Shown: positions 1 to 32,229 of the stretch, piece after piece | Position numbering within the stretch: position 1 is the first letter of the stretch | Layout of the letters: each line of letters starts with the position of its first letter | DNA from: Deltaproteobacteria bacterium | Lineage (GTDB): Bacteria > Myxococcota > Kuafuiibacteriia > Kuafuiibacteriales > Kuafuiibacteriaceae | Assembly (NCBI GenBank): GCA_040218735.1 | Contig: JAVJQW010000037.1 | Location: 1-32,229, forward strand | Length of the DNA stretch: 32,229 nt | Direction of reading: 5' to 3' | Made by a program: the position numbers and the translations under genes | Notes under the pieces: model-generated | Seen by the model: the letters and a program-made list of their open reading frames with translations, nothing else | Database searches by the model: none | Told to the model about the DNA's origin: nothing

Positions 1-786
1 GCGTGCCGGCGCGTCGCCGTGGTGCGCGCGGCGCGGCGGGTGCCCGAGGTCTTCCAGATGATCGCGACCGGCGAGCTGCATATGACCGGCGTCGCGAAGC
101 TCTCCAAGTTCATGAACGACGACAACGCCCACAGCCTCGTCGAGCAGGCGAAGAACAAGTCCAAGGCCGAGGTCGAGATGCTGATCGCTACCGAATTCCC
201 CGGCGCGAAGAGCTCTGACGACCGCGTCGAGGCGGCAACGCCCGACACGTTCGCTTTTCGCTTCGACGGGAGCGCCCAAGCCAAGGCGCTCTTGGATCGA
301 GCCAAAGAGCTCACCCCGCCTGGGACGGACATCGGGGAGATCTTCGAAGCCGCGCTCGCGCTGTACGTGGAGAAGCTGGAGAGGAGGAAGAACGGAAAGA
401 CGAGTCGTCCGCGATCGAGACCCGCCGAAGGTGCACCGGCGGGCGCAGCGTACGTCCCGGCCGCAACGCGCCGCGCGGTGGTCGAACGCGACGGCGCGCA
501 GTGCACGTTCGTGAGCGCGGACGGACGGCGGTGCAGCGAACGGTCGAACCTCGAATTCGATCACGTGGGCGGCCGCGCGTTGGGGGCCAAGAGCGTGGTC
601 GGTGAGCTGCGCTTGCTGTGTCGCGCGCACAACCTTCACGCGGCGCGGGAGGTGTTGGGTCGCGTCTTCATCGATCGGAGGATTCACGAGCGCCGCTCCA
701 CCCGGCCCAGGCAAGACGCGTGTACCGAGCGCCCGCGGCGTGAGGCGCTCCCGACGCAGCCGTCACGCGCGGAGGGCGGCTCGTGA
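1..786 (+). CDS. DUF222-like / HNH endonuclease domain protein, copy 1 (5' end truncated by window)
   Basis: Frame +1 is open from base 1. The C-terminal region RRAVVERDGAQCTF...RCSERSNLEFDHV...LRLLCRAHN is a Zn-binding HNH signature. The protein is near-identical to the gene at 31537. Confidence 0.85.
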   Translation, partial: ACRRVAVVRAARRVPEVFQMIATGELHMTGVAKLSKFMNDDNAHSLVEQAKNKSKAEVEMLIATEFPGAKSSDDRVEAATPDTFAFRFDGSAQAKALLDRAKELTPPGTDIGEIFEAALALYVEKLERRKNGKTSRPRSRPAEGAPAGAAYVPAATRRAVVERDGAQCTFVSADGRRCSERSNLEFDHVGGRALGAKSVVGELRLLCRAHNLHAAREVLGRVFIDRRIHERRSTRPRQDACTERPRREALPTQPSRAEGGS

Positions 787-983
787 GAGCGATACGAGCC
801 GGTGTTCGAGACCGCGGCCCTCCTTCGGAGCACCGCGCTCCGCGGTCCCCGCCTTCGCCAGCCCGGCAACGGCGCACGAGCGACGCATCGCTCCGCAGTG
901 CCGGCGCGCTGCCCTACGTCGAGGCGCCGCTCGCCGCCTGATGGGGGCTCGAGGCAGGCCCGTCCGCTAAGTGAATGGCATTG
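1..983 (+). mobile_element. Right part of putative non-autonomous IS4-like element carrying an HNH gene (copy 1)
   Basis: The HNH gene is followed by ~165 nt of non-coding DNA and then ...TCCGCTAAGTGAATGGCATTG, the reverse complement of the repeat at 30935. Confidence 0.6.
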
Positions 984-984
984 C
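952..984 (-). repeat. Terminal inverted repeat (right end, IS4-like)
   Basis: Its reverse complement GCAATGCCATTCACTTAGCGGA-CGGGCCTGCCT matches 30934-30967 GCAATGCCGTTGACTTAGCGGATCGGGCCCGCCT. The core matches at 20/22; the full alignment matches at 30/33 with one 1-nt gap. Confidence 0.8.
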
Positions 985-1018
985 CTCTAGCCGGGCACCT
1001 GTGCGAGCGCATCGAAGC

Positions 1019-30919: not shown

Positions 30920-30933
30920 GCGGGCGCCCACCC

Positions 30934-30967
30934 GCAATGCCGTTGACTTAGCGGATCGGGCCCGCCT
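30934..30967 (+). repeat. Terminal inverted repeat (left end, IS4-like)
   Basis: CAATGCCGTTGACTTAG... is the inverted partner of 952-984 and resembles IS4-subgroup ends (YAATRCC). Confidence 0.8.
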
Positions 30968-30986
30968 GGAAAGGCCGTAGGCGGGC
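30960..30986. other. GC-rich hairpin just inside the left TIR
   Basis: GCCCGCCT-N11-AGGCGGGC forms a perfect 8-bp stem. There is no U-tract, so it is not called a terminator. Confidence 0.45.
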
Positions 30987-31521
30987 ATGACGCGCCCGAC
31001 TCACCTTGGAACGATCGCCCGACACGGCAGTGCCCCGCCGGCCCGCGCGGTCCGCGCTCCATGTTGGCGGAAGGACGGCGGCGAGGCTCCGCTCGCTGGT
31101 CGGCGGCACTCGCAACGATCCCGATGTAGCGCTCGCGGCGCGGCCATCCCCGAGATGGATCTTCGCAACCTCGCACGCGAGTAGCCCACGCCGCCTTCGA
31201 CCCGTTTCACGACACCGATGGATTGCGCGTCGGATGATTGCGCCGGCGGCGGTCGAGGGCTGCGATGGACCGGTGAGGTTCGCCGGCTGGTGAGAGGGAT
31301 GGGCGGTCGCGCAAGTCGAGTTGCAGAAGCGGGTTCTTTTTCTCTCTTGGGGATTGACGGAATTGGAGGCCCTGTCCGGGCTAGCTCTTCGACGAACGCA
31401 GTCCGTTTCGAAGTTTTCGAGCTTGGACGCATCGCCGGACGCTGACGGTCCATGGCGTGCGTCCTCGCACGTCTCAGACCGTCATCCTCGAGTCGTGCCG
31501 AATCGCGTTTCGAGGGCTCGA

Positions 31522-31530
31522 TGATACCTT
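31522..31530 (+). promoter_or_regulatory. Extended -10 element, probably for a leaderless HNH transcript
   Basis: TG-A-TACCTT lies 6 nt before ATG 31537, with no Shine-Dalgarno sequence. Confidence 0.45.
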
Positions 31531-31536
31531 CAATGC

Positions 31537-32229
31537 ATGAGCGCGGACGCTTGCAACCTGTCTTGCATGACCCAGAACGATCTCCTGGGCGGACTTCGTG
31601 AGGCGCTTCGCGCGGAGCTGAAGAGCGGTGTGCAGGCGCTCCGGTTCATGGCGGAGATCGAGCGGCGCAAGCTCTACGTGGAGCGCGGCTTCAGCTCGCT
31701 GTTTCGGCTCTGCGTCGAAGGGCTCGGGCTGACCGAGGACCAAGCGTGCCGGCGCGTCGCCGTGGTGCGCGCGGCGCGGCGGGTGCCCGAGGTCTTCCAG
31801 ATGATCGCGACCGGCGAGCTGCACATGACGGGCGTTGCGAAGCTCTCCAAGTTCATGAACGACGACAACGCCCACAGCCTCGTCGAGCAGGCGAAGAACA
31901 AGTCCAAGGCCGAGGTCGAGATGCTGATCGCTACCGAGTTCCCCGGAGCGAAGAGCAGTGACGATCACGTCGAGGCGGCGACCGCGGAGACGTTCGCCTT
32001 TCGCTTCGACGGGAGCGCCGAAGCGAAGGCGCTCTTGGATCGAGCCAAGGAGCTCACCCCGCCTGGGACGGACATCGGGGAGATCTTCGAAGCCGCGCTC
32101 GCGCTATACGTCGAGAGGCTGGAGAAGCGGAAGAATGGAAAGACGAGTCGTCCGCGATCGAAACCCGCCGAGGATGCGCCGGCGGGCGCAGCGTACGTCC
32201 CGACTGCAACGCGGCGTGCAGTGGTCGAG
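31537..32229 (+). CDS. DUF222-like / HNH endonuclease domain protein, copy 2 (3' end truncated; missing from ORF track)
   Basis: MSADACNLSCMTQNDLL...AEIERRKLYVERGFSSLFRLCVEGLGLTEDQACRRVAVVRAARRVP. Bases 31744-32229 align without gaps to 1-486. Alternative start at 31567. Confidence 0.88.
   Translation, partial: MSADACNLSCMTQNDLLGGLREALRAELKSGVQALRFMAEIERRKLYVERGFSSLFRLCVEGLGLTEDQACRRVAVVRAARRVPEVFQMIATGELHMTGVAKLSKFMNDDNAHSLVEQAKNKSKAEVEMLIATEFPGAKSSDDHVEAATAETFAFRFDGSAEAKALLDRAKELTPPGTDIGEIFEAALALYVERLEKRKNGKTSRPRSKPAEDAPAGAAYVPTATRRAVVE

Follow-up and report, generated by a model that had tools for sequence, protein, structure and literature searches.

A transposase-less cassette with IS4-type ends and an HNH nuclease gene, present in many copies in a genome of the Myxococcota

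Introduction

Insertion sequences (ISs) of the IS4 family have reportedly given rise to mobile insertion cassettes: MIC231, derived from IS231 in Bacillus cereus, is said to have been described by Chen et al. in 1999 and by De Palmenaer et al. in 2004. MIC231 reportedly has IS4-family ends, no transposase, one or more passenger genes, a target duplication of about one helical turn and a dependence on transposase supplied in trans. Here we examine a window of 32,229 bp, the whole of contig C53 of a Deltaproteobacteria bacterium (Myxococcota; Kuafuiibacteriales; assembly GCA_040218735.1, contig JAVJQW010000037.1), which is bounded by two half copies of one ~1.8 kb repeated cassette. The cassette resembles MIC231 in each of these respects, the trans dependence being presumed: its IS4-type inverted repeats enclose a gene for a DUF222-like/HNH nuclease instead of a DDE transposase. 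We consider it quite likely that it is a non-autonomous, IS4-subgroup-derived mobile insertion cassette, mobilised in trans by an IS4-type transposase, and the family is probably now stranded. The source genome (G000) comprises 11.6 Mb in 70 contigs, with 68.8% G+C, and is 96.5% complete.

A sequence-only reading of the window had proposed an undescribed kind of mobile element. In fact, transposase-less passenger cassettes with IS4-family ends are already in print (MIC231), and the element is of a known kind, a transposase-less IS-ended cassette, with an unusual HNH nuclease as its cargo. It differs from MIC231 in belonging to the IS4 rather than the IS231 subgroup, in reaching ~30 copies in one genome, in a nuclease cargo under purifying selection, in a cognate transposase that was not found in the host genome, and in its myxobacterium-like host.

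For the IS4 subgroup, PMC2266710 gives an end signature -AATR--------WTW---- with a relaxed first base (Table 1). Its members make direct repeats 10-13 bp in size, are 1,400-1,650 bp long and in some cases have a marked target specificity. The cassette shares with E. coli IS4 and its subgroup the end signature, the variable first base and direct repeats in this size range, and with some members the target specificity. Unlike them, it is 1,795 bp long as against 1,400-1,650 bp, and the single DDE transposase open reading frame (ORF) with a YREK motif by which the subgroup is recognised is absent.

Two further systems invite comparison on account of their cargo. The REP13E12 repeats of Mycobacterium tuberculosis, reportedly described by Gordon et al. 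in 1999, are also multicopy repeats, ~1.4-1.8 kb in length, and the protein of their ORF combines an N-terminal domain of DUF222 type with an HNH motif. PMC10589994 likewise refers to REP13E12/DUF222/HNH repeats in this species. The cassette departs from them in that the DUF222 model (PF02720) is reached by only 3 of 40 members of its nuclease family (E <= 0.01, best 4.5e-4) and not by the window protein, and we found no report in the literature of IS4-type ends for REP13E12. The second system is ISC, whose elements, according to PMC4810608, encode IscB, a Cas9-like protein with an HNH domain, and are non-autonomous transposons. Cassette and ISC are alike in being non-autonomous, in having an HNH-domain nuclease as sole gene and, presumably, in being moved by the transposase of another element. 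ISC, however, is of the IS200/IS605 type, which has an HUH transposase and makes use of neither inverted repeats nor a duplication, and IscB adds a RuvC domain and a guide RNA. The cassette does not fit an IS200/IS605-type nuclease carrier (ISC/IscB, TnpB), which would lack repeats and a duplication and have subterminal hairpins, a guide RNA and a RuvC domain. Its inverted repeats and its 10-bp duplication are both present, RuvC is absent, Rfam gave no match, and the IscB model matches its protein weakly and in the HNH part only (E 0.0024; 17 bits, the cut-off being 175). Full-text literature searches yielded only mentions of the M. tuberculosis repeats; neither HNH cassettes with IS4 ends nor the family in myxobacteria turned up in them as described.

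Two half copies with IS4-type ends

The first and last 485 bases of the window are direct repeats, 93% identical (the copy in 1..786 against 31744-32228). Window 30934-30955 reads GCAATGCCGTTGACTTAGCGGA; 963-984, taken on the opposite strand, gives GCAATGCCATTCACTTAGCGGA. The two are identical at 20 of 22 positions, and a weaker likeness extends to ~35 nt with one gap. This is not a chance match, since the 22-mer, searched with up to 3 mismatches, had 33 matches in G000 against 0 for the reversed control. The repeat of copy 2 lies ~570-600 nt before its ORF (ATGs at 31537 and 31567), and in copy 1 the ORF stops at 786, followed by 166 nt up to the repeat. The sequence-only reading thus had the repeats, their 20/22 core and their distances from the HNH gene right. 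Its joined length of ~1,790 bp without a DDE transposase also agrees with an uninterrupted copy elsewhere (G000:C33:76228-78022), which measures 1,795 bp, has one real ORF and holds no DDE transposase.

The annotated IS4 of E. coli K-12 (NC_000913.3 4502090-4503515) has the ends TAATGCCGATCAGTTAAGGATCAG and TAATGCCAGTCAGTTAAGCAAC and a 12-bp duplication; the IS4 end given in the sequence-only reading, TAATGCCGATCAGTTAAG, does stand there. Compared by eye, ~18 of 25 positions of the cassette end match it. In the element end CAATGCCGTTSACTTAGCGG, positions 2-5 are AATG and positions 14-16 are TTA, in agreement with the IS4-subgroup signature, and its pattern CAATGCC(N7)TTA is accompanied by a duplication length of 10 bp that fits the subgroup too. 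Both ends are thereby confirmed as IS4 type.

Many old copies and a derivative without the gene

A BLAST search of G000 with a complete copy gave 61 fragments, and 30 of these reach the end of a contig. Of the 140 contig ends, 30 lie inside the element, which is the main repeat interrupting this assembly. The recognisable ends, 20 left and 21 right, imply at least 21 copies, and the number is probably ~30. Every repeat pair that could be assessed holds an HNH gene or a deletion of it. With IS-type inverted repeats, a passenger gene, no transposase, and target duplications of their own at many sites, the copies have the features of a mobile insertion cassette. They are 4-12% apart, and identity between nearest neighbours is 82-96%, except for one pair at 98.9% over 446 nt; judged by this divergence, the copies are old. 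A derivative lacking element positions 652-1471 (junction 651|1472), in which the ORF is deleted, has different flanks on C5 and C57 and occurs also on C49. Its presence at two or more loci indicates that transposition does not depend on the ORF in cis.

Homology between copies stops sharply at the repeats. The flanks of different copies are unrelated, which argues against simple spread in this genome as a homing endonuclease gene, where the empty allele is cleaved and then repaired between homologous flanks. The same observations bear on a non-mobile origin, in which a gene family was dispersed by segmental duplication or the pattern is an artefact of assembly. The copies are indeed old and divergent, and many lie at contig ends, where assembly is unreliable; sharp boundaries, unrelated flanks and 10-bp duplications nevertheless speak against it, and two empty sites in a genome of the same genus (G001) contradict it, so that we regard it as barely credible.

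A 10-bp target, its duplications and two empty sites

The internal copy on C33 is flanked by CCGCTAGCGC and CCGCTAACGC, which match at 9 of 10 positions. Among the half copies, the one on C32 pairs with one on C45 by the perfect 10-mer GGATTAGCCG, and the one on C58 pairs with window copy 1 by CCTCTAGCCG, equally perfect. Because the pairing of ends favoured matches, and ~0.3 perfect matches are expected by chance among 420 possible pairs (a rough estimate), the pairing rests mainly on the C33 copy and on synteny with G001. There, on G001:C922, the C58 flank and the flank that begins at window position 991 lie 32 nt apart with no element between them, which confirms the C58/window pairing; on G001:C1005 an empty site matches the C33 copy, which stands between two convergent genes. 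Outer ends with duplications of their own had been expected for both window copies: that of copy 1 is found on C58:1-540, whereas 35 right-hand fragments yielded no partner end for copy 2.

Of 41 ends, 25 have YTAR at positions -7 to -4, as against a frequency of 0.00037 per position genome-wide. The target consensus is a near-palindrome, GGN-YTAR-NCC, and the 10-bp duplication is centred on YTAR. For both insertions that were checked, a flanking gene has the TAG of the duplication as its stop codon. The flank was first read as YTAG plus three variable bases, that is, as a TA or CTAG duplication of the IS630 or IS5 type; this was rejected as the three bases belong to the 10-bp direct repeat. 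PF13358 had no hit above its cut-off in G000.

Two other sequences were noticed in G000. A second, small repeat of ~80 bp (G000:C46:148640-148721 and 15 other places; 16 hits) ends in ...CTCGCGAAGCGAGGGACCGTTATGGCC with CTAG on both sides; several HNH cassettes adjoin it, and the probable reason is that this repeat, on inserting, restores the GGCCTAGG target. At G000:C54:102465 there is a lone IS4-like end, CAATGCCGATCTCTTAGCG..., preceded by CTAGCCTAGCCTAG and followed by unusually A+T-rich DNA; neither a partner end within 3.5 kb nor any similarity to a transposase was found for it.

The cognate transposase stands elsewhere

A 19-mer of the end occurs in public genomes in more than 113 stretches from several phyla, of which 80 loci were kept for inspection. 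An InsG-like transposase lies directly beside it in 20 of these 80, and complete ISs that have both ends and measure 1,452-1,496 bp are present in records from Anaeromyxobacteraceae, Myxococcaceae, Kofleriaceae and Hyphomicrobium. An HNH hit occurred in 2 of the 80 loci and in neither lay inside the repeat. The intact IS4 transposase with the same ends, for which the sequence-only reading had suggested a search, therefore exists in other genomes; none was found in G000. With IS4-type ends, duplications and same-ended transposases elsewhere, the earlier proposal of a non-autonomous IS4-derived cassette moved in trans probably holds.

Other cargo-carrying derivatives of this IS lineage exist. 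A 1.8-kb same-ended element in genome G023 (L112:513-2335; G023:C90:75912-77734) retains a C-terminal remnant of InsG (37% identity, E 2e-13) and has, in place of the catalytic core, an ORF resembling an IS200-like Y1 transposase (Pfam E 2e-4, just under the cut-off); a similar one is found in G032 (L116, G032:C226). On G001:C794 (L113:4693-4741) we also observed a miniature element of 49 bp, little beyond two IS4-type ends. Taken together, these derivatives indicate that the lineage repeatedly spawns non-autonomous forms. Inside the cassette itself no transposase remnant was detected by tblastn with InsG and two fragments (best E 0.18).

The DDE_Tnp_1 genes found in G000 are two. One, at G000:C36:7345-8694 (L049:922-2271), is IS701-like, codes for 449 aa and has inverted repeats of 22 nt (L049:778-799 and 2251-2272); the other, at G000:C57:105-1577 (L050), is IS1182/IS5-like and codes for 490 aa.

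The cargo protein and the non-coding parts

The only gene of the element encodes a protein of 320-330 aa. The window protein has no Pfam match and is not matched by the PADLOC defence-system models; PHROG HNH families match it at E 8e-5, and PF01844 matches 24 of 40 aligned family members. Copy 1 contains the CX9C...DH...CXXHN nuclease motif, and C237, C247, H257, C276, H279 and N280 are invariant across the family alignment. In a confident structure model (predicted local distance difference test, pLDDT, 90.6) the HNH domain aligns with GVE2 HNH over 75 residues (Z 7.2, root-mean-square deviation 3.1; VIA-align 2). Fold, motif and zinc cysteines agree with the beta-beta-alpha metal finger of an HNH endonuclease. 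The helical N-terminal domain, which the ORF part of copy 2 encodes, matches ParB/KorB DNA-binding domains at a middling Z of 5.7-6.7, and residues 150-203 form a candidate ribbon-helix-helix (Z 4.5-4.9); Foldseek gave no match in the PDB at E <= 0.001. The cargo is thus, on the predicted structure, an HNH nuclease with a ParB/KorB-like DNA-binding domain and a possible ribbon-helix-helix.

The positions of these parts in the window are given in Table 1; the start of the copy 2 ORF was picked from an alignment with homologues. In the 5' non-coding segment a T-rich/TTGACGG motif (~31330-31400) recurs, compared by eye, upstream of the homologue that G001 has in single copy. Substitutions in the 5' 600 nt do not follow a 3-base period (424/399/434), and a second protein there was ruled out on this ground. 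In a test for structured RNA, joint folding of 19 copies reached z-scores down to -12.8 against column shuffles, on both strands, at element positions ~222-424; the stems obtained are palindromes rich in GC, and compensatory changes in them are almost absent. A scan for sigma-70 promoters and terminators found nothing, and nhmmer profiles of the 5' and 3' non-coding parts had no hit among 55 related loci with a threshold as loose as E 10. The mean pairwise distance among copies in the 3' segment is 0.119.

Table 1. Parts of the two cassette copies at the ends of the window
Feature	Position	Strand	Remarks
Copy 1, 3' part of HNH ORF	1..786	+	Open at contig start, stop 784-786; from ORF list
Copy 1, 3' non-coding segment	787..947	+	Aligns with element positions ~1602-1765 in all copies
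Copy 1, right terminal inverted repeat	948..983	-	IS4-type core CAATGCCATTCACTTAGCGGA at 963-983, minus strand
Copy 1, 10-bp target-site duplication CCTCTAGCCG	984..993	+	Identical 10-mer abuts left end at G000:C58:541-550
Copy 2, flank at expected 10-bp duplication, CGCCCACCCG	30925..30934	+	Usual YTAR absent; partner end not found
Copy 2, left terminal inverted repeat	30935..30969	+	Core CAATGCCGTTGACTTAGCGGA at 30935-30955
Copy 2, 5' non-coding segment	30970..31566	+	No Rfam match
Copy 2, 5' part of HNH ORF	31567..32229	+	Alternative upstream ATG 31537; runs off contig end

A nuclease under selection between drifting repeats

Over the part covered, 32 of 45 ORF fragments are intact and 13 are disrupted. 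Among 25 chosen copies, including three with single frameshifts (218 pairs), the median ratio of nonsynonymous to synonymous substitution rates (dN/dS) is 0.18 at a median dS of 0.24. Differences at codon positions 1, 2 and 3 number 3,089, 2,785 and 9,949, the distances among copies at these positions are 0.059, 0.053 and 0.197, and for changes unique to one copy the corresponding ratio of proportions, pN/pS, is 0.38. Catalytic and zinc residues are kept in 27/27 to 31/31 of the copies that cover them, and D256 in 28/29 (one D256G). In the inverted repeats, by contrast, the distance is 0.14-0.18, and in the non-coding parts 0.12-0.14, near the third-position value, and the 19-mer conserved across phyla is still matched by only 11 of 41 ends. 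The HNH gene is under purifying selection while the inverted repeats drift almost neutrally; the nuclease is thus kept as the transposition signals decay.

Such selection raises the possibility that a DDE transposase moves the cassette and the HNH nuclease promotes its persistence or spread, a view that overlaps with the one we prefer and differs from it only in the role of the cargo. Nucleases of IS200/IS605 elements reportedly cut empty or excised sites so that repair restores the element; similarly, the HNH nuclease might cut such sites and repair might copy the cassette back. The strength of selection on the ORF against the drift of the repeats, the preserved active-site and zinc residues, the union of DNA-binding folds and nuclease in one protein, and the multicopy state of the family in 61 of the 301 genomes sampled from the phylum, among them 38 of the 40 that belong to one family, all agree with a helper of this sort. 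No target of the nuclease is known, however; empty sites have only a degenerate 10-bp motif in common, the ORF-less derivative has multiplied too, and near-identical copies, which would point to present activity, are absent apart from the single pair at 98.9%. We therefore judge such a role of the nuclease unlikely, and continue to favour a cassette that is moved in trans with the nuclease gene as its passenger.

Relatives with other ends

The sequence-only reading had suggested that IS4 ends could explain why this nuclease family is often multicopy in myxobacteria-like genomes. They do not, as related genomes hold many copies with other ends. In one of them (G003; six loci, L087-L092) the copies are ~98% identical, a similarity that suggests recent spread; the IS4-type end has no match there, the left boundaries are ragged, the right boundary ends in CTA(R), and inspection of the boundaries revealed no inverted repeat. 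The complete genome G133 (C1, L131-L144) has at least 14 copies, and 14 of 14 examined are units of 1,653-1,878 bp with a different, 17-nt inverted repeat (TTCATTCGTCACATCCC / GTCATTCATCACATCGG; 39 occurrences against 0 for the control) and with direct (GGGGTC)n arrays of variable length on both sides. G001 has one family copy, at 49% identity and without IS4 ends. The HNH family may thus have its own means of spread.

Two readings take this further. In one, the DUF222-like/HNH protein is itself the mobility enzyme: recognition of the repeats and the staggered cut in the target would be its work, and the resemblance of the ends to those of IS4 would be secondary. That no DDE partner was found in G000, that all 14 examined repeat pairs in G133 enclose this gene family only, and that the N-terminal domain has a ParB/KorB-like fold, if at a middling score, would suit it. 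Yet ends and a 10-bp duplication of this kind are hallmarks of IS4-family DDE transposition, the identical end sequence lies beside InsG-like transposases in a quarter of the public loci (20/80), the repeats in G000 are conserved no better than neutral sequence, and G133, in which no transposase search was made, gives no argument from the absence of a partner. We hold this reading to be very improbable. Less remote, though still doubtful in our estimation, is that the gene and its upstream region form a selfish unit which multiplies in many myxobacterial genomes without a DDE transposase, with ends and targets that differ between lineages, and which was additionally captured by IS4 ends in G000.

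Discussion

We propose that the cassette retains two IS4-type inverted repeats of ~21-35 nt, between which the DDE transposase would have been replaced by the gene for a DNA-binding HNH nuclease with its own upstream region. An IS4-type, InsG-like transposase acting in trans would cut and paste the copies, making a 10-bp staggered cut at GGN-YTAR-NCC. Targets would lie mostly at gene ends, since TAG and TAA are rare in a genome of 69% G+C. Selection would have kept the nuclease gene working. Because the copies are 4-12% apart and their repeats decay at a roughly neutral rate, the family is probably stranded today.

Several observations weigh against this proposal. An IS4-type transposase was not found in G000, although the genome is 96.5% complete and an unassembled copy is possible: PF13006 has no hits there, the two genes hit by PF01609 resemble IS701 and IS1182 and have different ends, and five full-length myxobacterial IS4 transposases reach a best E of 0.023. 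A transposase fragment used as query had no match in G001. Only 3 of 20 left ends could be paired at 9/10 or better, a full copy on C18 has no matching duplication (3/10), and the flank of window copy 2 lacks YTAR. The passenger of a dead cassette should decay, yet the ORFs are mostly intact at a dN/dS of 0.18 and a pN/pS of 0.38. Finally, the family is multicopy and repeat-bounded elsewhere without IS4 ends.

The element accounts for the poor assembly of G000, and matching 10-bp duplications allow contigs to be joined, C58 with C53 and C32 with C45. If the nuclease gene were a selfish unit, its protein would define an undescribed, nuclease-driven class of bacterial mobile element, and the selection seen on the ~30 copies in G000 would reflect that activity. 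On the reading that we favour, transposase-less cassettes would also arise from the IS4 subgroup and outside Bacillus, reaching ~30 copies in one genome. A nuclease kept by selection on cassettes with decaying ends and an apparently lost transposase would serve either the host or its own persistence, and a defined 10-bp target together with defined ends provides a handle for probing the role of this widespread nuclease.

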